Assembly: GCA_031856995.1 (NCBI GenBank)
Contig: GCA_031856995.1_4356.1
DNA: 43,888 nt
Reading direction: 5' to 3' (one strand)
Source of the DNA: a phage
In this document: piece by piece, positions 14,408-43,888 of the stretch
Layout: each line of letters starts with the position of its first letter
Position numbering within the stretch: the first letter of the stretch is position 1
The notes under the pieces: generated by a model
Told to the model about the DNA's origin: nothing
The model's input: the letters and a program-made list of their open reading frames with translations, nothing else
The model's database searches: none
Position numbers and translations under genes: made by a program

Positions 14408-14436
14408 TTGCGTACCCCAATATAATAGGGTACTAT
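14408..14436 (+). promoter_or_regulatory. sigma70-like promoter with palindromic core, driving the + strand island
   Basis: TTGCGT-17 nt-TACTAT with ATAATAGGGTACTATTC core; same element as at 32985-33013 and 34873-34901. Confidence 0.6.
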
Positions 14437-14451
14437 TCACTTACACCAACA

Positions 14452-14658
14452 ATGAAGGGGTTTAAAATGTCCAGTTTACCAGTTTCCTTAATTCTGTTTG
14501 CACTGCTCGCTTATTTCGCGCCTTTCCTGGTTGCGTACTTCCGTAACCATAAAGCGAAGTTAGCGATATTCATGGCTAATCTGTTTCTTGGTTGGGTTCT
14601 GCTGCCGTGGGTATTTATTTTAATCTGGGCTTGCAACTCGAACGTGAAAGAGAAGTAG
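14452..14658 (+). CDS. small membrane protein (two TM helices); likely start at ATG 14467
   Basis: MSSLPVSLILFALLAYFAPFLVAYF...LFLGWVLLPWVFILIWA; GAAGGGG RBS before 14467. Confidence 0.55.
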   Translation: MKGFKMSSLPVSLILFALLAYFAPFLVAYFRNHKAKLAIFMANLFLGWVLLPWVFILIWACNSNVKEK

Positions 14659-16640: not shown

Positions 16641-17808
16641 CGTAGGTGATACGTTGAATTACGATAGACGACTGGTACTGGTTGCCGGTGGCCTGGCCTT
16701 CAATAGACTGAGTGATTGACTCAGGGCCACCAATCTCAGGTGTGACCGCCGTAAGCTCTGCACGTTTCAAACTGAAAGACATAGCCCCGTTTACCCCCGC
16801 CAGAATGGAGTTAATCTCTACCTGCTGCTCGTTGATAAACTTCTGAATCATCGCCATGTCATACAGCTTACCGGAGATGGAGAAGGTGTTAGCTGCACGG
16901 CTACGCTCCACAAACGCTACGTTAGTGTTACCAAGTTCGAACTGCGCGGACGCGCTGTTATCGTTGGTGATAGTCAGACTGTCGCAACGCAACGGCGTAG
17001 AGCCGTCGAACACGGAAACGTCAACCGAAGAGAACGGCTCATCACCAAAAGTAACAGATGAGAAGTTGGAACCGGTCGGCGGCGTAGTGAGAATCTCCTG
17101 ACTGCGACCGATGAATGGGAAGCTGCCAGTTACCATCGCGTTAACAGCCTGTTCGATGGTAAAACCAGAAACTTCCACGCCTTTGGTTAACGTGTACGCG
17201 TCAGTACCGCCGCACTGGCCTTTGTACCAGGTAAGGATAGAGAACGTCTTACACGCGTTACCGGTTTCCAACGTGTCGCCAGTTTTAGCCTTACTAGTTT
17301 TTGTCTCGGTGGTCAGGGTGTGTTGGATGCCCGCACCAGTAACAACCGTAGCCGTTACTGCAGTAACAATAAATGGTTTTGCGTTATCGCCTGTTAAATC
17401 GGTAAACGCAATCAGGTCGCCTACCCCAACTCCGTCAGTGATAAAACTGCCGGTAGCGCGTGTGAACGTCTTGCCCGCGGGTGCGACGGTAATCGATAGT
17501 CCTGACAGGGAAACGCCGGATTGCCACGTAGAGCCTAAAGCGCCCGCTAACCAGTCGTCCTGGCTTTTCGAGCTAAGCTCGATGGCGTATTCTCCACTAA
17601 CCTGTTTGTTACCGGTGCGGATGGATGTAGTTTCACGGCTGCCGTCCAGTTCGTTGGATGTCAGCGTGTCACGGGTAATCGCGGGAACGCCACCCGTGTT
17701 ACGCAACGGCGACCATACCGGGTTAGTCGGTGTTACGCCGGGGGTAGTTTCCGCCACATAGAATTGCGCGGTATTCGCGCCCTTAAAAGGAGTTGTAGCC
17801 ATATTCAC
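16636..17808 (-). CDS. major tail protein
   Basis: 390 aa Thr/Gly/Ser-rich protein followed by strong terminator; position upstream of chaperones and tape measure. Confidence 0.7.
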   Translation of the reverse strand: MNMATTPFKGANTAQFYVAETTPGVTPTNPVWSPLRNTGGVPAITRDTLTSNELDGSRETTSIRTGNKQVSGEYAIELSSKSQDDWLAGALGSTWQSGVSLSGLSITVAPAGKTFTRATGSFITDGVGVGDLIAFTDLTGDNAKPFIVTAVTATVVTGAGIQHTLTTETKTSKAKTGDTLETGNACKTFSILTWYKGQCGGTDAYTLTKGVEVSGFTIEQAVNAMVTGSFPFIGRSQEILTTPPTGSNFSSVTFGDEPFSSVDVSVFDGSTPLRCDSLTITNDNSASAQFELGNTNVAFVERSRAANTFSISGKLYDMAMIQKFINEQQVEINSILAGVNGAMSFSLKRAELTAVTPEIGGPESITQSIEGQATGNQYQSSIVIQRITYA

Positions 17809-23299: not shown

Positions 23300-23550
23300 G
23301 TTTCTCCTTTCTCGATAAGTAAAGCCCCGCTTTAAGGCGGGGCGCTAGTCCTTATCATTTAAACATAGAAACGGCGTAATCTCAGTAAACCCGTTACTTT
23401 TTACACGAGCAATAGAGTATGGCCCTTCCGAACGCGTCAGCGTAACTACACTCATGACTTACGTCCCGCTCCGTTACCTGCCCGCGCCGCGGTCGCTTGT
23501 TCATACTTCACAAGCTCAGGTGGAGCTTAGCACATTTTTAGTGAAAAGTC

Positions 23551-29108: not shown

Positions 29109-29300
29109 CTACCCCACTATTTCATCACCGAGCCACGCCGTCTCTCGTATATCATCGACCACACACGCGGCGTGCTCACGGCTAATTGCAAAAATGTAGA
29201 AGCTAAACTTCTTCCCGTCGGCGTCGATATGGTTAACAGAGTATGGTTTCCACAGGACGCCATCAATCACTACCGGTTCAGGCGCTTTCATGCCCATCAC
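29109..29300 (-). CDS. hypothetical protein
   Basis: 63 aa track ORF in translationally coupled chain. Confidence 0.5.
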   Translation of the reverse strand: MMGMKAPEPVVIDGVLWKPYSVNHIDADGKKFSFYIFAISREHAACVVDDIRETAWLGDEIVG

Positions 29301-30407: not shown

Positions 30408-30436
30408 AATATAATAGGGTCGAGGATAATAGTCAA
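30408..30436 (-). promoter_or_regulatory. sigma70-like promoter (TTGACT-17 nt-TATATT on - strand)
   Basis: Hexamers with 17-nt spacer about 35 nt upstream of ATG 30373; leader contains AACGAGA shared with other phage promoters. Confidence 0.55.
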
Positions 30437-30454
30437 CTAGTCATTACAGAAAAC

Positions 30455-32867: not shown

Positions 32868-32952
32868 CTAAATCCAGGTCTATAACGGTTCCTACTTTGA
32901 AGATGCCTTTAGTCAGTTCACTGTCTCTTTTTGTAACTTTAACTTCTAACAT
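32767..32952 (-). CDS. hypothetical protein
   Basis: 61 aa ORF with GAGGAAAA RBS, first gene after promoter at 32985-33013. Confidence 0.5.
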   Translation of the reverse strand: MLEVKVTKRDSELTKGIFKVGTVIDLDLDDMVVYHGGIEWNVARTDNGFKLPGSETHFAAV

Positions 32953-32984
32953 TTCGTTTTCCTCTGTCTCGTCTGTGTAAATGA

Positions 32985-33013
32985 ATAGTAGCCTATTCTA
33001 TCTTAGTGTGCAA
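32985..33013 (-). promoter_or_regulatory. sigma70-like promoter with palindromic core
   Basis: On - strand TTGCAC-17 nt-TACTAT; core GAATAGTAGCCTATTC is a perfect 6+4+6 palindrome. Confidence 0.6.
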
Positions 33014-34838: not shown

Positions 34839-34872
34839 TTCTAAATTCCTTATGTCTCGTTTCGATAAGTGA

Positions 34873-34901
34873 ATAGTAACCTATTATGTTGGGGTGTGCA
34901 A
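34873..34901 (-). promoter_or_regulatory. sigma70-like promoter with palindromic core (leftward early promoter)
   Basis: On - strand TTGCAC-17 nt-TACTAT; core GAATAGTAACCTATT. Confidence 0.6.
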
Positions 34902-34973
34902 GAGAATAGTTACGTTGCCGTTGTGATTCTTCGGGGAGGGTTGTGCCTTTATTCTTATTACTTGGTAACTAAA

Positions 34974-34993
34974 GGGCAGGCTTAAGCCTGCCC
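34974..34993. other. Perfect stem-loop GGGCAGGCttaaGCCTGCCC in the divergent intergenic (origin-like) region
   Basis: 8-bp perfect inverted repeat with 4-nt loop. Confidence 0.6.
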
Positions 34994-35259
34994 AATAATC
35001 GTTACATTTTTACGGTTGCGAATCTACGGCACATTAAGAAACAGTAGATATTTCAGCGGGTTACTTCTTTAAATGAGATTTAGATACACTTATCCTTAAA
35101 CCCCAAGGCAAGCATCTCAGCTGTCTGGGAGGGGTTGACGAATCCCTCGGGGAGGGTTCGTCAACTCCGTAATATATACAAGTCCCAAAACCATTATACA
35201 AACATGTGTCAAGAACTTTCAATAACATTTTTGTAAAGATTAAATATTACAGAGATTGG

Positions 35260-35288
35260 TTGCTTTTACATTCCCGCTATCCTATACT
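35260..35288 (+). promoter_or_regulatory. sigma70-like rightward early promoter
   Basis: TTGCTT-17 nt-TATACT about 30 nt upstream of ATG 35320; preceded by AT-rich tract. Confidence 0.55.
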
Positions 35289-35319
35289 CAGTTTCACCAA
35301 ACAAACAGGAGATATAAAA

Positions 35320-35502
35320 ATGTCGCATTATATGACGCAGAATGAAGTAGCTGAACGTATCGGGGTGACACGTCAGACAATTAATAACTGGTTGCGCAGC
35401 GGCAAATTCCCTGACTGCTGTATTAAGGTTATGGGCCGCCGTTTACCGGGAACATTTGACCGTAATAAAGTCGAAGCATGGATTAAGGAGAACGTGAAAT
35501 GA
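35320..35502 (+). CDS. small HTH DNA-binding protein (AlpA/excisionase-like fold)
   Basis: MTQNEVAERIGVTRQTINNWLRSGKFP; ATG 35320 after AGGAGA (track ORF starts 35206). Confidence 0.6.
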   Translation: MSHYMTQNEVAERIGVTRQTINNWLRSGKFPDCCIKVMGRRLPGTFDRNKVEAWIKENVK

Positions 35503-35858: not shown

Positions 35859-35987
35859 ATGACGAAGTTAATAGTTCCACAGCTGCGCCGACAGAAACAC
35901 GGCGCCGATTTCTTCGCGCCGGTAAAGATGAACCGCGCAATGCGCCGTATGCAGGAAGCCTTAGAACGTGCGGAGAAAAAGAAATGA
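35859..35987 (+). CDS. small basic protein (42 aa)
   Basis: MTKLIVPQLRRQKHGADFFAPVKMNRAMRRMQEALERAEKKK; stop overlaps ATG 35984. Confidence 0.35.
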   Translation: MTKLIVPQLRRQKHGADFFAPVKMNRAMRRMQEALERAEKKK

Positions 35988-38206
35988 ATATTGTTTTTGC
36001 AACGCTGCGTAACACATTCGATAAAAACCCTGTAGCGCGTGAAATGCCGCTGGAGCAGTTTGTCGAGTATGTCTGCGATACATCGAAGCGTTTATCCGTG
36101 GACCCGTCATGGACTAAGGAAGAGTACGACGCTGCCAAGATTAAACAGAAAGCTATTGCGCCTGTTGGTGGTCGCCGTAAAAACGCTATCCTGGAAGACA
36201 GTGTGGTTAAGTTCGATTTCGACCATCTCAACCGTACTCAGTACCGCGACCTGACACGCAAATTCAAGAACGCGCCGTTCTTCAATATTCTGCACACAAC
36301 GGCATCGCATCAGCACGCATGTAAAAACGGAGATTACGCTTTCCGCGTTCTGGTTCCAGCTCGCACGCCGTTTAACTCTAACGACGCGTGGATGGTGCAA
36401 CGTGCTATTTGTGCAGAGTTAGAAATAGACGAAGCGTTGCGCGACCACTGCACAGAAGACGGCAACCGCCTTATCTACCTGCCGCATAAAGAGTCGAAGA
36501 TAACGGTTACAGAAGGGCGTGTTATCCGTGCTGAGCGGTACATCAAGAAAGCCGAAGAGATGGGGTTGCGTAAGCGTGAGGCTAAAACACTTGCCGCTGA
36601 TGAGCATGGGCTTAACGCGGATATAGCACACTTCTGCGAAGCCGAGCTTGGCCTTGACGCTTTATCTTCCGGGCGCGGGTACGAAGTGCCATGCCCTAAC
36701 GAACATCTGCATACAGGCAAGGGCTCCACCAGCATAATGCTCGACGGTAAAGAAGTGCGCTTTGTCTGCCAGCATACAAACAACGGCGCTTGCACCGAGC
36801 TTAACCGTAGGCAGCATTTGGCCCTGCGTATGTGTGGCCTACCCGACGAGCTTAACATAGATAAGCAACCTATCAGCATTAACAGCATTCGTGCGGCTCT
36901 GCCTGATTTACCGGAAGAAGAGATTGAAGAACTACACCGCACAGAGAACGAGGACCCAGTAACTTGCAGCCTCGACGACCTGGAAGACGACGAGGACTCA
37001 GAGGAGGACGAGTTACCGGAGCCGGTAAAGGCTGATTTCGTCGTTGAGGGGTACATGCCGTCGGATTGTATCTGGGATATCGTCGGGGAATCTGGCACGT
37101 ACAAATCGTTCTATACGCTGGGGATGATGTACCTCAGCGCCGCCGGGTACAGGTTTGCGGGGGCGGATACCCAGCGTTGCCACCATTTCTATATTGATGG
37201 TGAGGGTGGCGCAGCTACACGCACCCGTATTGATGCACTAGCGGCTAAATATGGCGGGGAAGGTAAAGATTATGTACACGTCATCGATATGGGCGAAGTC
37301 GGCAAACTTAAAAGCCTGATTAAGTTAATGCGCGAAACTGCTGGCGACGAGCCAATTGGCATGGTTGCGTTCGACACCCTTAACCAGACCCTGGCACTGA
37401 CGATTGATAAGTTCGACGAGAACAGTTCATCAACAGCAATCGGCATGGGTAAAGTTATCGCCATTCTGAAAGAAGTACGCGATGCAACTAAAGCCGCAGT
37501 AGGCGTTGTCCACCATACGCCGAAGGGTGGAAAGAAAGCACGCGGCAGTGGGGCGCTGTATGCGGGTGTTGACGTGGAACTGACAATCGAACGTGCAACC
37601 GACCGTCAGATAAACGTATATCACTCGAAATTCAAGCACGGGCCTCAGCAGAAGACGGTTGGCATGGTGCTGGAGTCGGTACAGTTCCGTGAAGCGCCGC
37701 CGCCTAAAGAATACCGAGCGGTTGAGTTCCTGGGTAGCACAGAGGAATACGGCACAATCGTAAACCTGGACCTGCCTGAACCACACAAGGCGCTTGTGTT
37801 GATGCCGTGGGGTTTCGAGCCGTTCAAAACTGACGAGGAGAAAGAGCGGGAAGAAGGGTTGACGAAAGAAGGTAAGCAAAAAGTAAAGGAAGAAGTTAAA
37901 CGCGGCAGGGATGAAGTAAGGAAGGAGTCAATACTTTCGGCACTGGAAGACCTGCAACAGTCAGATGACACAGGTCGCGGTTTTACTCAGCAGCAGATAG
38001 TGGCTCGTTCCGGTGACTTCTCTGTGACTAACACCCATCTTGATAAAATGTTGAAAGATGGAGAACTAATGCTTGGTTGCGATGCTAACGGCGAAGTAGT
38101 ACCGAGAACATATCGTATACCCGAAAGAATAGGTGATAGATTAAGGCCGAAGACACTATACGAACCAAATGAGATGCTGGTGGTGACAGAGGAGGATTTG
38201 GAATAG
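35984..38206 (+). CDS. replication initiation primase/helicase-like protein (N-terminal Zn-binding primase-like region plus RecA-like ATPase)
   Basis: 740 aa; Walker A-like VGESGTYKSF, Walker B-like IGMVAFDTL, Cys/His cluster CPNEHLHTGKG...CQHTNNGAC, acidic linker. Confidence 0.6.
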   Translation: MNIVFATLRNTFDKNPVAREMPLEQFVEYVCDTSKRLSVDPSWTKEEYDAAKIKQKAIAPVGGRRKNAILEDSVVKFDFDHLNRTQYRDLTRKFKNAPFFNILHTTASHQHACKNGDYAFRVLVPARTPFNSNDAWMVQRAICAELEIDEALRDHCTEDGNRLIYLPHKESKITVTEGRVIRAERYIKKAEEMGLRKREAKTLAADEHGLNADIAHFCEAELGLDALSSGRGYEVPCPNEHLHTGKGSTSIMLDGKEVRFVCQHTNNGACTELNRRQHLALRMCGLPDELNIDKQPISINSIRAALPDLPEEEIEELHRTENEDPVTCSLDDLEDDEDSEEDELPEPVKADFVVEGYMPSDCIWDIVGESGTYKSFYTLGMMYLSAAGYRFAGADTQRCHHFYIDGEGGAATRTRIDALAAKYGGEGKDYVHVIDMGEVGKLKSLIKLMRETAGDEPIGMVAFDTLNQTLALTIDKFDENSSSTAIGMGKVIAILKEVRDATKAAVGVVHHTPKGGKKARGSGALYAGVDVELTIERATDRQINVYHSKFKHGPQQKTVGMVLESVQFREAPPPKEYRAVEFLGSTEEYGTIVNLDLPEPHKALVLMPWGFEPFKTDEEKEREEGLTKEGKQKVKEEVKRGRDEVRKESILSALEDLQQSDDTGRGFTQQQIVARSGDFSVTNTHLDKMLKDGELMLGCDANGEVVPRTYRIPERIGDRLRPKTLYEPNEMLVVTEEDLE

Positions 38207-38211
38207 GTAAA

Positions 38212-38235
38212 AAGAAAGGGGCGTTACGCCCCTTC
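38212..38235. terminator. Bidirectional terminator hairpin
   Basis: GGGGCGttaCGCCCC with A-rich 5' flank (T-run on - strand). Confidence 0.55.
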
Positions 38236-38439
38236 ACCTAGCGCCAGCCACTTGGCGTCTACTTCCAGCACTTCCGCCAGTTTAAACAGCGTTGCCGGGC
38301 GTACGTCCTGAGTTACCCCGAGTGCAAGCTGGTTAATCGCGCCCTGGGAAACGCCGGCCAGAACAGCCAGACGGCGCTGGGAGATACCGAGTTCTTTACG
38401 GCGTTGCTCTACACGGATGCCTAGTTCAGATGGTTGCAT
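38224..38439 (-). CDS. XRE-family (Cro/CI-like) HTH transcriptional regulator
   Basis: 71 aa; ISQRRLAVLAGVSQGAINQLALG classic HTH; AAGGAG RBS; divergent from + strand genes. Confidence 0.75.
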   Translation of the reverse strand: MQPSELGIRVEQRRKELGISQRRLAVLAGVSQGAINQLALGVTQDVRPATLFKLAEVLEVDAKWLALGEGA

Positions 38440-38454
38440 GTCAGTTACTCCTTA

Positions 38455-38490
38455 GTCAGTTGATATGTGAATAGTACCATATTAATTATT
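38455..38490 (-). promoter_or_regulatory. Promoter/operator element for the leftward HTH gene
   Basis: Palindromic core GAATAGTACCATATT; on - strand TACTATTCAC box matching -10 regions of the TTGCAC promoters. Confidence 0.45.
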
Positions 38491-38503
38491 TTAGAAAAGC
38501 CCA

Positions 38504-38532
38504 TTGACATGTGAATAGTTCGCTATTATAGT
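38504..38532 (+). promoter_or_regulatory. sigma70-like rightward promoter with palindromic core
   Basis: TTGACA-17 nt-TATAGT; core GAATAGTTCGCTATT. Confidence 0.6.
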
Positions 38533-38560
38533 TAGCCCATACCAAACGAGAGGGGCAGAT

Positions 38561-38788
38561 ATGAACACAATCACTGGGGCCATAGCTAAAGGTTTTCGAG
38601 CAATTTTCGGCGCTCCGCAAGAAGTGTGCACAAAACATAAATTTGTACTTTCTTGCGTAGTAGGGGATGAGTTTGATGGGTTCGATAAACTTGTTGTCTG
38701 TGACCATTGCGGGCAAGAAGCTATTCAACACTCAAACGGTAAATTTGAACTAATAGACGATAGCCTTACTGAAGGCGACGGTGAGTAA
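38561..38788 (+). CDS. hypothetical protein with CxxC
   Basis: 75 aa; GAGAGGGG RBS; CDHCGQE motif. Confidence 0.5.
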   Translation: MNTITGAIAKGFRAIFGAPQEVCTKHKFVLSCVVGDEFDGFDKLVVCDHCGQEAIQHSNGKFELIDDSLTEGDGE

Positions 38789-38812
38789 CTTACACAAACA
38801 GGAGAGAAACAA

Positions 38813-39313
38813 ATGTTAGAGAAATTCTTAGTATTGCTGGAACGTTTCGTAGTTGCACATGAACTGATTGCCGCGAACAGTGCGAAACAAGTTGTTCAGG
38901 TTGCCACGCCGCTGGAAGTAGAGACGGTATCGTACACCAAAGAAGCGGTAGCTGAGTGCGCTGAAGAAGCAACAAAAGAAATCCCGGTTGAAGGTGAAGA
39001 CGTAGTTGACACTAAACCGGCGGAGGAAGAGAAGCCAAAACGCAAGCCGCGTAAAGCTAAAGTAGAGGAACCTGCGCCAGAACCGGAAGAAGAGAAAGAA
39101 GAAGTCGATTACAAGTCTCTGCGTGACCAGATTCAGGCCATCGACGATGCAATTAATGAAGGTCCTAGCGATGCCGCGTGCGACGATTCTGATGAACTGC
39201 TGGAAGAGTTCACTGGTAAGAAAATGAAGATTGCAGCGATTAAAGACGAAGACCTGGCTGAATACCTGGAACGCTTGACAGCAATCAAGAACAAGTATTT
39301 CGAAGAAGAATAA
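38813..39313 (+). CDS. hypothetical acidic protein
   Basis: 166 aa, Glu/Lys-rich; followed by terminator. Confidence 0.5.
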   Translation: MLEKFLVLLERFVVAHELIAANSAKQVVQVATPLEVETVSYTKEAVAECAEEATKEIPVEGEDVVDTKPAEEEKPKRKPRKAKVEEPAPEPEEEKEEVDYKSLRDQIQAIDDAINEGPSDAACDDSDELLEEFTGKKMKIAAIKDEDLAEYLERLTAIKNKYFEEE

Positions 39314-39320
39314 TTATCTG

Positions 39321-39340
39321 GCGGCCTTCGGGCCGCTTTA
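39321..39340 (+). terminator. Rho-independent terminator
   Basis: GCGGCCttcgGGCCGC followed by TTTA. Confidence 0.6.
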
Positions 39341-39356
39341 ACTGAGGGTCGTAATA

Positions 39357-39572
39357 ATGAGTAACGTATACAAAGTAATAAACGAACAAATAGTTGTAGA
39401 AATAAGTGACTCATATGTGGGTTGTCAGCAATTCTTTGTTTTGAATGGTGCGTGGCGCGGGACTCTTGACTATGCCGCTGGCGAATATTGGGCGGACATG
39501 TACCCAACCGATAAAACGGCGGTACATACAATTCGTCCCGCCGTTAAAGGTGAATTTGCGCCGTACTACTGA
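39357..39572 (+). CDS. hypothetical protein
   Basis: 71 aa ORF preceded by conserved ACTGAGGGTCG initiation motif. Confidence 0.5.
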   Translation: MSNVYKVINEQIVVEISDSYVGCQQFFVLNGAWRGTLDYAAGEYWADMYPTDKTAVHTIRPAVKGEFAPYY

Positions 39573-39787: not shown

Positions 39788-40056
39788 TTTACCAACTCTA
39801 CCGCGCCGTCGACAGGCGGGACAACACAGAGGCACTATGGCTGTTGCGTGCGCCGTCCGGAGCGCACCAGATGGAAGAGATGGCTTACTTAGGCAAAGTA
39901 CCGCGGCCTAAAGATATAGGCCGTCACGTGTCACAGATTAAGCGCACGACATTCGCCAAGCCAGACTTTTATGTCTTTGAGTCGATGTATGGGTGGGCTA
40001 TGCACTGCGAACATAAGACGCGACATTTAATCGACCAGTGGGAGAGCAGGGTATGA
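39784..40056 (+). CDS. hypothetical protein
   Basis: 90 aa ORF, ATGA coupled. Confidence 0.5.
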   Translation: MIYQLYRAVDRRDNTEALWLLRAPSGAHQMEEMAYLGKVPRPKDIGRHVSQIKRTTFAKPDFYVFESMYGWAMHCEHKTRHLIDQWESRV

Positions 40057-40202: not shown

Positions 40203-40357
40203 CGAACCGTAAAGCGCGACTTCTCTTTATTAAATGTCACCAGCCTTTTCGAGTAAGCAACTCGACTTGGCTGATTATATTCAACCGTAGCGGTGACACG
40301 TGCGCCTACAAGCGCAAAACGCGTAAAGTTAAATGGGGTGGGAGTTTAAGAGCATGA
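40199..40357 (+). CDS. small basic protein (52 aa)
   Basis: ATGA coupling at both ends; MTNRKARLLFIKCHQPF... Confidence 0.35.
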   Translation: MTNRKARLLFIKCHQPFRVSNSTWLIIFNRSGDTCAYKRKTRKVKWGGSLRA

Positions 40358-41599: not shown

Positions 41600-41628
41600 T
41601 TGACATCTGAATAGTTAGCTATTATAGT
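41600..41628 (+). promoter_or_regulatory. sigma70-like promoter with palindromic core
   Basis: TTGACA-17 nt-TATAGT; core GAATAGTTAGCTATT. Confidence 0.6.
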
Positions 41629-42368: not shown

Positions 42369-43888
42369 ATGAGTTACCTGTTCTTAGACTTTGAAACATT
42401 CTCCGAAGCCGATTTGAAGAAAGTCGGTTCCTACGCTTACGCCGAACATCCAACTACCGAAGTGCTAATCTGTACATATGCTTTTAACGACCAGCCTGTA
42501 CAGGTATGGGATTGCACCGACGGCAGCGATATGCCGGGCGATTTGTATCGCGCGTTACGCCGCCTGGTTAAGCCGAACAGCCGCGTTAAGATGGTGTGGC
42601 ACAACGGCTCAATGTTCGATAGGCTCGTCATGAAACACTGCTGGGGTTTTGACATTCCGGTAAGCAACACCATTGATACGATGATTTGGGCGTTTCGTCA
42701 CGCGCTGCCGGGTTCGCTCGATGCGCTGTGCGAAGTGCTGGGCGTGTCCGCCAACAACGCGAAAGACAAACGCGGCAAGGCGCTGATTCAGCGTTTCTCT
42801 AAACCGACGCCGAAGAACTACAAAATCCGCCGCTACACCGCTGAAACACATCCCGATGAGTGGGCGCTGTTCATCAAGTATGCCGTTAGCGACATTACTG
42901 CGATGCGTGAAGTCTTCCATAAGCTGCCGCGGTGGGGTAACTCGGAGTTCGAAGACCGTGTACTGGAACTTGACCAGTTAATCAACGACCGCGGATTTAA
43001 GGTTGACGTCGCACTGGCGGAAGCCGCGATTGAAGCCGTAGAGAAGCACAAGGCACAGTTACAGGAAGAAGCTCAACGTAAATACGGCGGCTCGCTTACC
43101 GGTAAAGACTTCCTTCCGATTCTGCGTGAACTTGCGCCCGCGCACCACATACACAATGCACAGAAGTCGACGCTTAACGACCTGTTGGCAGATGATGATT
43201 TACCGGACGACGCCCGGATGATTATCGAAATGCGCCTCGGGGCCGCGTCAACAGCGTCCACGAAATATAACCCGCTGCTGTTAGGCCGCTCGTCGGACGA
43301 CCGACGCCGCGGTTGTATCCAGTACGGTGGGGCAAAGCGTACTCTGCGATGGGCCGGTAAAGGCTTCCAGCCGCAGAACCTGGCACGCGGTTACTATCAC
43401 GATGATGAGCTGGATAAAGGCATTTCGGCGTTACTTAAGGGTCGCGCCCATCGCCGTTTCGATGTGGCCAAGCTAACGGCATCGACCGTTCGTAGCTGCA
43501 TCATACCGGAAGCAGGGCATAAGTTTGTCGTTGCCGATTACTCTAACGTCGAGGGCCGCGGTCTTGCGTGGCTGGCGGGTGAAGACGATTTAATCGAAGT
43601 ATTTGTAAACGGGGTTGATGTGTATAAGAAACTCGCATCAACGGTGTTCAATGTTGCATATGAAGCCGTAACAAAGGACCAAAGACAAATAGCCAAAGCA
43701 ATGGTTCTGGGACTCGGCTACGCGGGGGGCGTCGGTGCTTTCGTCACGTTTGCTAAAAACTTAGGTCTTGATTTGAATGACATGACTAACACTTTAGACG
43801 GTACATTCCCGGACCATATTTGGGCCGCTACCGCACGCGGATACGAATGGGCGCGTATTCAGGAAGCCAAGCGACCACCACGTCCTGG
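42369..43888 (+). CDS. DNA polymerase, family A, N-terminal part with 3'-5' exonuclease motif (ORF runs off window end and continues at 1..729)
   Basis: ATG 42369 after TAAGGGTCG; MSYLFLDFETFS contains Exo I-type D-x-E; no stop before 43888; in frame with ORF at base 1. Confidence 0.85.
   Translation, partial: MSYLFLDFETFSEADLKKVGSYAYAEHPTTEVLICTYAFNDQPVQVWDCTDGSDMPGDLYRALRRLVKPNSRVKMVWHNGSMFDRLVMKHCWGFDIPVSNTIDTMIWAFRHALPGSLDALCEVLGVSANNAKDKRGKALIQRFSKPTPKNYKIRRYTAETHPDEWALFIKYAVSDITAMREVFHKLPRWGNSEFEDRVLELDQLINDRGFKVDVALAEAAIEAVEKHKAQLQEEAQRKYGGSLTGKDFLPILRELAPAHHIHNAQKSTLNDLLADDDLPDDARMIIEMRLGAASTASTKYNPLLLGRSSDDRRRGCIQYGGAKRTLRWAGKGFQPQNLARGYYHDDELDKGISALLKGRAHRRFDVAKLTASTVRSCIIPEAGHKFVVADYSNVEGRGLAWLAGEDDLIEVFVNGVDVYKKLASTVFNVAYEAVTKDQRQIAKAMVLGLGYAGGVGAFVTFAKNLGLDLNDMTNTLDGTFPDHIWAATARGYEWARIQEAKRPPRP
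43812..43888. repeat. 77-bp terminal direct duplication of bases 1..77 (assembly overlap / circular permutation)
   Basis: Exact identity between 1-77 and 43812-43888 by direct comparison. Confidence 0.95.

Follow-up and report, generated by a model that had tools for sequence, protein, structure and literature searches.

The DNA analysed here, to which we refer as the window, is a 43,888-bp stretch that constitutes the complete, circularly permuted genome of a Kagunavirus, a virulent siphovirus of the Guernseyvirinae. Our subject is a small regulator gene located at 38224-38439 on its minus strand, whose 71-amino-acid (aa) product resembles Cro of phage 434, together with a 14-bp palindrome, AATAG-N4-CTATT, which is found twice in the promoter region of this gene and again at promoters elsewhere in the genome. 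The ends of the window carry an exact 77-bp terminal duplication (bases 1-77 are the same as 43812-43888), i.e. a circular assembly of ~43,811 bp has been written with an overlap. The surroundings of the gene (37500-39500) are 97-99% identical to Escherichia phages XY1, JSSK01 and Bas70, and a megablast search with this segment recovered matches in 428 phage records. The annotated relatives display the layout of virulent siphoviruses, with blocks for structural genes, for replication, and for small early genes plus lysis genes. Within this layout the regulator gene converges with the primase-helicase gene (35984-38206, plus strand) and is divergent from a series of plus-strand genes, which starts with those at 38561 and 38813 and extends to an exonuclease gene at 40333.

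A preliminary description, made from the sequence alone, had identified the open reading frame as a leftward-transcribed gene of the XRE family with a helix-turn-helix (HTH), and both profile and structural comparisons bear this out. The frame begins with an ATG codon and its product matches the Pfam HTH_3 family over residues 11-65 (E 2.3e-12; 47.2 bits against a cut-off of 23), with further matches to HTH_19 and HTH_31. Its closest solved relative by sequence is phage 434 Cro (E 2e-6, residues 6-68), followed by the DNA-binding domain of the 434 repressor. An AlphaFold model generated with an alignment of close relatives as input (predicted local distance difference test score, pLDDT, 78) has five helices, at residues 5-17, 21-28, 32-39, 48-57 and 62-66, as in the five-helix XRE fold where helices 2 and 3 form the HTH. 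The top fold match of this model in the PDB is again 434 Cro (2cro; 41% identity, probability 1.00, template-modelling scores 0.73/0.79), and SinR, HipB and the controller proteins of restriction-modification systems rank after it. The HTH spans nearly all of the 71 residues, with neither a C-terminal oligomerisation domain nor an S24 peptidase domain, which places the protein with the single-domain Cro type and not with the CI type. The first residue of helix 3 is a Gln that aligns with Gln28 of 434 Cro.

Comparison of 33 distinct Kagunavirus alleles yielded a mean nonsynonymous divergence (dN) of 0.0125 and a mean synonymous divergence (dS) of 0.268; the resulting dN/dS of ~0.05 shows that strong purifying selection acts on the regulator gene, which is thus no decaying remnant. 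Homologues occupy the corresponding locus in Jerseyvirus (~50% identity) and the lineage of phage St162 (~40% identity), with synteny in all three lineages. They differ in the orientation of the primase: in St162 the regulator gene heads the primase-containing operon, whereas in Kagunavirus and Jersey an inverted primase segment converges on it. When proteins sharing the recognition helix were sought beyond the family, only close relatives (77-97% identity) came up. Many database records already label the gene as a transcriptional repressor, Cro or DicA-like, and we have very little doubt that it encodes a functional Cro-type DNA-binding protein.

The 121-bp gap upstream of the regulator gene contains a 25-nt direct repeat (38460-38484 and 38504-38528), whose two copies are 84% identical, lie 44 bp apart from start to start, and each hold one copy of the palindrome. 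The copy farther from the gene is a perfect palindrome, AATAGTTCGCTATT, at 38514-38527, which we term O_R. It is situated in the spacer of a rightward promoter, P_R (38504-38532, plus strand), at about -25 to -12. P_R consists of TTGACA at 38504-38509 and TATAGT at 38527-38532 separated by 17 bp, agrees with the consensus at 11/12 positions and is kept in the 34 Kagunavirus loci from IMG/VR that we compared. It serves a 75-aa gene, a 166-aa gene and the genes onward to the PD-(D/E)XK exonuclease. The copy closer to the regulator gene, O_L (38470-38483), departs from the palindrome by one mismatch (AATAGTACCATATT) and covers the gene's own predicted promoter, P_L. The latter (38471-38479, minus strand) is of the extended -10 type, TGG-TACTAT, with TACTAT running from 38476 to 38471 and a poor -35 hexamer, CTTTTC. 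The preliminary description had assigned a TACTATTCAC box to the HTH gene, which corresponds to this minus-strand -10 element with its preceding TGG; it had also recognised the rightward TTGACA-17-TATAGT promoter for the replication genes and the two palindromic copies 44 bp apart, placing the latter within 1-3 nt of the cores given here.

On the minus strand, the first repeat copy reads AATATGG-TACTAT-TCAC. The AATAGGnTACTATTCAC layout of P_L recurs at three other leftward or rightward promoters, and in Jersey the same P_L -10 element follows a TTGCGT -35 hexamer after a 17-bp spacer. The mismatch in O_L is constant in all 34 Kagunavirus loci as well as in two further lineages (L081 and L082) whose regulator is 78% identical to that of the window. 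It consists, on the minus strand, of AATAT in place of AATAG, and the departing base makes the TG of the extended -10 element (TGGTACTAT). Correspondingly, TGn precedes TACTAT in 34/34 Kagunavirus loci, and appears as TGCTACTAT in L081/L082. As the mismatched base and the TG are one and the same, operator strength and promoter strength would be set against each other, and this autoregulated promoter seems to trade operator quality for promoter strength.

The preliminary description had spoken of overlapping back-to-back promoters. They are indeed back to back, but the two conserved promoters do not overlap, their -35 regions being 4 bp apart. The only leftward candidate that overlaps P_R is TTCACA-16-TAAAAT (38515 to 38488), which we did not retain as a promoter of the regulator gene, given its lack of conservation in L081/L082. 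Promoter-like matches by themselves are not significant here, with 3 found against 3.0 expected in 3 kb. The start sites predicted from the positions of P_L and P_R lie ~75 bp apart. The spacing between O_L and O_R is 43-45 bp in Kagunavirus and 55 bp in Jersey; helical phasing of the two sites is suggestive, but the spacing is too variable for it to be used.

Around O_R, the pattern of conservation is that of a site with fixed ends. Its half-sites are invariant in 34/34 Kagunavirus loci, whereas the central 4 bp vary (TTCG, TTAG, CTAG, TTCA, TTTG and CTCG), and the 3-5 nt between TTGACA and GAATAG differ in both sequence and length. In the sister Escherichia phage fBC-Eco01 (L001, 4011-4024) the left half-site of O_R is AGTAG and not AATAG, a natural one-base operator variant. 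The gene slot after P_R is mosaic in Kagunavirus (loci L007-L040): some loci start with the 166-aa gene and others with unrelated small genes, and promoter, operator and leader remain constant despite this turnover. In the window, the first gene is that of the 75-aa protein (38561-38788, plus strand), which has four Cys residues and belongs to phrog_32657, of unknown function.

The remaining signals of the regulator transcript can be read directly from the sequence. Its ribosome-binding site, AAGGAG (38448-38453, minus strand), is kept in the Kagunavirus, Jersey and St162 loci. An intrinsic terminator hairpin at 38215-38235 (minus strand) has a 9-pair stem followed by CTTTTT, with the TAA stop codon of the gene in its loop. 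The T-run is found on the minus strand alone, with none after the stem on the plus strand; the converging primase operon may therefore be transcribed past the hairpin, in antisense to the HTH gene and on into P_R, and such read-through may amount to convergent-transcription interference with P_R.

The palindrome is not confined to this region. AATAG-N4-CTATT is the most abundant 5+5 palindrome in the genome, with six perfect copies (starting at 2118, 14424, 32984, 34872, 38514 and 41610) against 0.03 expected and a maximum of 1 per shuffle in 200 shuffles. Each of the perfect copies, as well as O_L, overlaps the -10 region of a sigma-70-type promoter; moreover, at each perfect copy the overlap is with a promoter-like -35/-10 pair spaced by 17 bp, and these pairs include the three strongest plus-strand consensus promoters. 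We could distinguish two classes of layout. In class 1, TTGACR-N4-AATAGnnnnCTATTATAGT, represented by 2118, 38514 and 41610, all on the plus strand, the spacer contains the palindrome, which extends over about -25 to -12. In class 2, TTGCRY-N10-AATAGGnTACTATTCAC (AATAGGn, TACTAT, TCAC), the palindrome is at about -19 to -6; one member, 14424, is on the plus strand, and the other three (32984, 34872 and the regulator's own promoter at 38470) are on the minus strand. Relative to transcription, the 20-bp unit GTGAATAGnnnnCTATTATA thus occurs in both orientations, and since the palindrome takes two registers with respect to the polymerase hexamers, it cannot be a polymerase-recognition element in its own right. 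With the same palindrome on at least five other promoters, the earlier picture of the element as a local two-promoter switch is not supported.

The class 1 copy at 2118-2131 lies in TTGACG(2108)-17-TATAGT(2136) upstream of an operon for a SNF2-type helicase, with a perfect orthologous copy in Jersey at 29243 and copies in L081/L082 as well. That at 41610-41623 lies in TTGACA(41600)-17-TATAGT(41628) upstream of the SSB and DNA polymerase genes, and has a perfect copy in Jersey at 32930. Of the class 2 copies, the one at 34872-34885 covers TTGCAC(34901)-17-TACTAT(34873), the promoter that heads the leftward operon of small genes, and is orthologous to a perfect copy at 39910 in Jersey; that at 32984-32997 covers TTGCAC(33013)-17-TACTAT(32985) within the leftward small-gene block, with equivalents at 15034 in L081 and 14929 in L082. 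The copy at 14424-14437 is located in a divergent region, in the plus-strand promoter TTGCGT(14408)-17-TACTAT(14436) that leads to an Imm_superinfect protein and an exonuclease; Jersey has a perfect copy at 16957. Here a possible minus-strand promoter, TTGGTG-16-TATTAT (14422-14449), points toward the tail genes, and with -10-like hexamers on both strands a single site could gate both the Imm/exonuclease operon and the tail-gene operon. Beyond these, a degenerate copy at 30428-30441 (ACTAGTTGACTATT on the minus strand) overlaps the -35 element of TTGACT-17-TATATT and is also present in Jersey (42338), L081 and L082, and further degenerate copies are found at 23544 and 25172. The promoter of the primase operon, TTGCTT(35260)-17-TATACT(35288), carries no copy of the palindrome. 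The leaders that follow promoters of either class have in common an A/C-rich block preceding the ribosome-binding site, e.g. CCAAACGAGAGG, ACACCAACAAT and ACAGACGAGACAGAGGA (38533-38560, 2137-2165, 14437-14460, 32960-32984 and 34845-34872).

The pattern extends to relatives of the window phage. L081 and L082 have the palindrome at all six of these positions, with a centre that differs. In Salmonella phage Jersey there are four perfect copies against 0.04 expected, all at orthologous promoters and with differing centres: in the divergent region at the tail chaperone, at a promoter inside the resolvase gene, at the SSB promoter and at the early leftward promoter. Two of these fall inside annotated promoters (29238-29266 and 32925-32953), and a third (39910) abuts one at 39893-39920. 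In St162, by contrast with these phages, there are 0 perfect copies and 1 copy with one mismatch, which lies in coding sequence. The top non-terminator palindrome of St162 is TATTA-N6-TAATA, with 3 perfect copies against ~0 expected, while a de novo k-mer motif search in this genome was dominated by coding repeats. The promoter region of the St162 regulator has a perfect 10-bp palindrome, GAGTATACTC, in place of the AATAG motif. In this phage (L006, 12680-12980 and 9615-9785) the Cro-like gene is co-directional with the primase, and a G-rich repeat region of the GGGGGAGA type follows the primase.

These observations point to a set of operators, and we consider it highly probable, from the counts and placement of the copies, that the palindromes are protein-binding sites. 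The 71-aa protein is their probable binder, on several grounds. Proteins of the XRE/434 family bind inverted repeats of 14 bp whose outer bases are conserved and whose centre varies, as exemplified by the 434 operators, ACAA-N6-TTGT. The only doubled site in the genome is the divergent promoter region of the 71-aa protein itself, where no other element is conserved between genera, and this protein is the only HTH regulator common to all three lineages. As both promoters at the regulator gene carry the palindrome over the -10 region, self-repression combined with gating of the rightward operon is the natural reading, and binding would, in all probability, repress. In this much the analogy drawn earlier with the logic of lambda PR/PRM stands; what does not carry over is the partner, for there is no CI and nothing suggests activation. 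Further, a protein that recognises O_R would recognise the distant copies too, which argues for a genome-wide regulon and not a local two-promoter switch.

We accordingly favour a scheme in which a repressor of the Cro type acts, with no counterpart, on itself and on most of the non-structural transcription units, and assign the chain as a whole a probability of about 0.55. The 71-aa protein would be a dimeric repressor of the 434-Cro type and AATAG-N4-CTATT its operator, which the phage would have put across the -10 region in most of the sigma-70-type promoters of its non-structural genes. At infection, host RNA polymerase would fire all of these promoters. The regulator would be made from its own weak promoter, with an extended -10 element and no -35 hexamer, and on accumulating would fill the perfect operators first, turning down the replication, recombination and small-early-gene operons. 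Only at a higher concentration would its own imperfect operator be occupied, so that self-repression would come last, an order of occupancy that we infer. The operator-free promoter of the primase operon (35260-35288) would escape control. The outcome would be negative feedback and an early shut-off by Cro alone, with neither a CI partner nor bistability, since a bistable switch calls for a partner repressor and there is none.

Several points weigh against this scheme. The recognition helices of the Kagunavirus and Jersey regulators, which are ~50% identical, differ (SQGAINQ against SQSLITH), yet the palindrome is identical in the two. The copies beside the Jersey regulator gene are the poorest in that genome, with 1 and 2 mismatches. 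TATTA-N6-TAATA can only tentatively be taken as the replacement motif of the St162 lineage, being a post hoc choice that is imperfect at the St162 regulator locus itself. The transcription start sites used throughout are predicted and not mapped. Our searches of the literature on Kagunavirus, Guernseyvirinae, Jerseyvirinae and Jerseyvirus for repressors, promoters or transcriptomes returned annotation-level mentions only and no experimental paper. Lastly, a second small HTH protein of the genome is 80% identical (95% similar) between the window phage and Jersey, as against ~50% for the Cro-like protein, and a tblastn search placed it in 443 records, all of Kagunavirus or Jerseyvirus, and St162 lacks it, which is the distribution of the motif.

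This second protein (60 aa; gene at 35320-35502, plus strand) belongs to the excisionase-like HTH_17 family and is encoded by the first gene of the primase operon. It is the strongest rival for the palindrome: it would be made from an operator-free promoter and could thus be produced first and then act on the others, the Cro-like protein having a different target. Co-occurrence cannot separate the two candidate binders, as the HTH_17 gene and the motif share their distribution. The form of the site speaks for the Cro-like protein. XRE dimers classically recognise inverted repeats of this 5-4-5 form, whereas proteins of the HTH_17/excisionase type and of comparable size, such as lambda Xis, TorI and BldC, as a rule recognise asymmetric sites or direct repeats, to which they bind as monomers or in head-to-tail arrays. 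Moreover, the sole doubled site is at the Cro-like gene, over its own promoter, with no alternative conserved operator visible there. In addition, XRE proteins ~50% identical can share operators, as do 434 Cro and the 434 repressor domain. On balance we consider the HTH_17 protein a much less probable binder than the Cro-like protein, but a serious rival.

We also considered the HTH_17 protein as a promoter-loaded antiterminator like AlpA or Q. Proteins of the AlpA/Q type exceed 140 aa, insert an N-terminal segment into the RNA exit channel, and sit as monomers on a short asymmetric site between the -35 and -10 elements. For AlpA this site is an asymmetric 6-bp element, GGGACG, which residues 128-142 of a single monomer read (PMC9371919). 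The HTH_17 protein is excluded from such a role by its size (60 aa, HTH only), by stoichiometry and by the symmetry of the palindrome where an asymmetric site is expected.

Returning to the Cro-like protein as binder, a narrower version of its action is a local switch resembling lambda PR/PRM, where it regulates only its own promoter and the adjacent rightward operon and the other copies are unrelated promoter sequence. Two copies 44 bp apart in a divergent promoter region give a geometry close to that of lambda PR/PRM. Nevertheless, the five perfect 14-mers elsewhere are as good as the local ones or better and are conserved across genera, no second repressor is present, and there is no sign of activation; we therefore regard this version as unlikely.

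Slightly less likely still is that the repeat has no dedicated binding protein, and is either an intrinsic promoter element or a pair of opposed -10-like hexamers. In phage fBC-Eco01, seven copies found with PHIRE, with the consensus tgAATAGTa-ccTATTat-T, were published as promoters for a phage-encoded RNA polymerase (PMC9825357), and one of them is exactly O_L. The publication notes neither the palindromic character of the element nor its overlap with sigma-70 hexamers nor the link to the HTH gene (PMC9825357). The label cannot be right because there is no such polymerase gene in these genomes: none is present in the gene tables of Bas70, Jersey and St162. It is true that the right half of the palindrome overlaps TATTAT/TATAGT, that the left half can read TACTAT on the other strand, and that at 14424 there are genes to drive on both strands. 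Against this, the palindrome takes two registers relative to ordinary sigma-70 hexamers, and the left half-site of class 1 is part of the spacer; on the opposite strand, where there is no gene to drive, it reads AACTAT or GCTATT, and yet it is invariant while its neighbours drift. With a poor opposite-strand hexamer, no gene and an invariant half-site, symmetric bidirectional promoters are rejected as the source of the palindrome at class 1 sites. A host transcription factor can be dismissed as a highly improbable binder: the left flank TGTGAATA, which may resemble half an ArgR box, lacks the second ArgR half-site, and the motif is common to Kagunavirus of E. coli and Jerseyvirus of Salmonella while being absent from Salmonella phage St162, so that it tracks the phage lineage and not the host, which in turn argues for a phage-encoded binder.

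Literature searches turned up no account linking the motif with sigma-70 promoters and the HTH gene, and nothing directly comparable on Cro-like regulators in virulent phages. The absence of a lysogeny module, which the preliminary description had stated, is corroborated on two sides. The annotated gene tables of Bas70, Jersey and St162 contain no integrase and no CI-type or CI-sized repressor, and a search of 5,426 complete E. coli genomes with a 1.1-kb query revealed no prophage copy of the locus, in agreement with published descriptions of these phages as strictly lytic. The sole matches were two adjacent spacers in a type I-E array of clustered regularly interspaced short palindromic repeats (CRISPR) in E. 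coli 2017.09.02CC (locus L084, NZ_AP025214.2, 4038212-4038789), each matching the window at 32/32 positions. The first corresponds to 38244-38275, inside the HTH gene, where the upstream three bases GCG are a non-canonical protospacer-adjacent motif (PAM); the second corresponds to 38476-38507, between O_L and the -35 element of P_R, with an upstream ATG that is a canonical AWG PAM. This is natural CRISPR immunity against the regulatory region.

Superinfection immunity had been suggested earlier as a function of the HTH protein. A more conventional candidate for it is a 68-aa membrane protein encoded at 14452-14658 (plus strand), which matches Imm_superinfect (PF14373, E 9e-13) and is the first gene behind the palindrome-bearing promoter at 14408-14436. 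More speculatively, strictly virulent Guernseyvirinae may carry 'immunity types', each with a global repressor of the Cro type and an operator specificity that has been switched in concert at all promoters between lineages. Apart from setting the timing of its own phage's programme, the repressor of a resident infection would then silence the operator-bearing promoters of a superinfecting relative of the same type and spare those of another; one type may be defined by AATAG-N4-CTATT in Kagunavirus and Jerseyvirus, and another by a different set in St162-like phages. We think this improbable as matters stand, but if true it would constitute repressor-based exclusion and competition among lytic phages in the absence of lysogeny.

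One further locus stands out in the window. A 430-bp non-coding gap at 34886-35319, notable above all from 35222 to 34960 on its minus strand, contains a strong minus-strand promoter, TTGAAA-18-TATAAT (11/12), a long hairpin at 35131-35168 and a terminator at 34993-34974. A ~220-nt stretch of the minus strand folds at -78.3 kcal/mol (z = -4.96 relative to shuffles) and has no Rfam match, nor did an Rfam scan of the whole window return any. The gap may encode a small RNA or represent a replication origin.

Few small siphoviruses of E. coli and Salmonella are isolated more often than Kagunavirus and Jerseyvirus, and hardly any work has addressed how their genes are regulated. Both find use in cocktails for therapy and biocontrol, and they also serve as engineering chassis, for which the BASEL paper cites phage CM001. 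If the proposed regulon is real, it would provide a map of ~7 promoter-operator units with exact coordinates, in which one small protein controls most of the non-structural units, a circumstance that could be exploited, or would have to be respected, when inserting payloads. It would likewise correct the published annotation, the motif not being a promoter for a phage polymerase, and would explain why 'transcriptional repressor' hits in these genomes are no lysogeny warning for therapeutic use. The device itself, a Cro-type repressor with operators overlapping -10 elements, is familiar; the conceptual gain is modest, and what the work offers is a concrete regulon map that can be tested, together with a corrected annotation.

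Among known systems, the controller proteins of restriction-modification systems such as C.AhdI and C.BclI, which occupy ranks 5, 7 and 11 among the structural matches, are alike in being small dimers with the XRE fold that act on palindromic boxes in their own promoter and time expression. They differ in serving a single operon and in activating before they repress, whereas here there is no restriction-modification system and no evidence of activation. The dispersal of sites recalls C1 of phage P1 and gp71 of mycobacteriophage L5 with its 'stoperators', repressors that maintain lysogeny in temperate phages through many dispersed asymmetric sites. These share with our candidate regulon a small repressor and many short sites at or near promoters across the genome, and are set apart from it by the palindromic site, the Cro-sized protein and the lack of lysogeny in the present case.

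The lambdoid CI/Cro switch has in common with this locus divergent promoters that share operator sites beside the regulator gene, with two sites here in place of three. In the window phage, however, the rightward operon encodes a 75-aa Cys-rich protein followed by replication genes, with no opposing CI, and there is no lysogeny module. In function, the 71-aa protein may be likened to the Cro proteins of P22 and lambda. The closest parallel is phage 434 Cro itself: both proteins have 71 aa, five helices and no C-terminal domain, and they are 41% identical over residues 6-68; both are encoded divergently from a strong early promoter, with a site over their own promoter, and the 14-bp candidate operator here similarly has conserved outer bases and a variable centre. 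The system departs from that of 434 in having no CI partner, tripartite OR, integrase or prophage copies, and in its half-site, which is AATAG and not ACAA. Above all, its predicted operators are situated at at least seven promoters across the genome of a virulent phage, whereas those of 434 Cro are confined to OL and OR.

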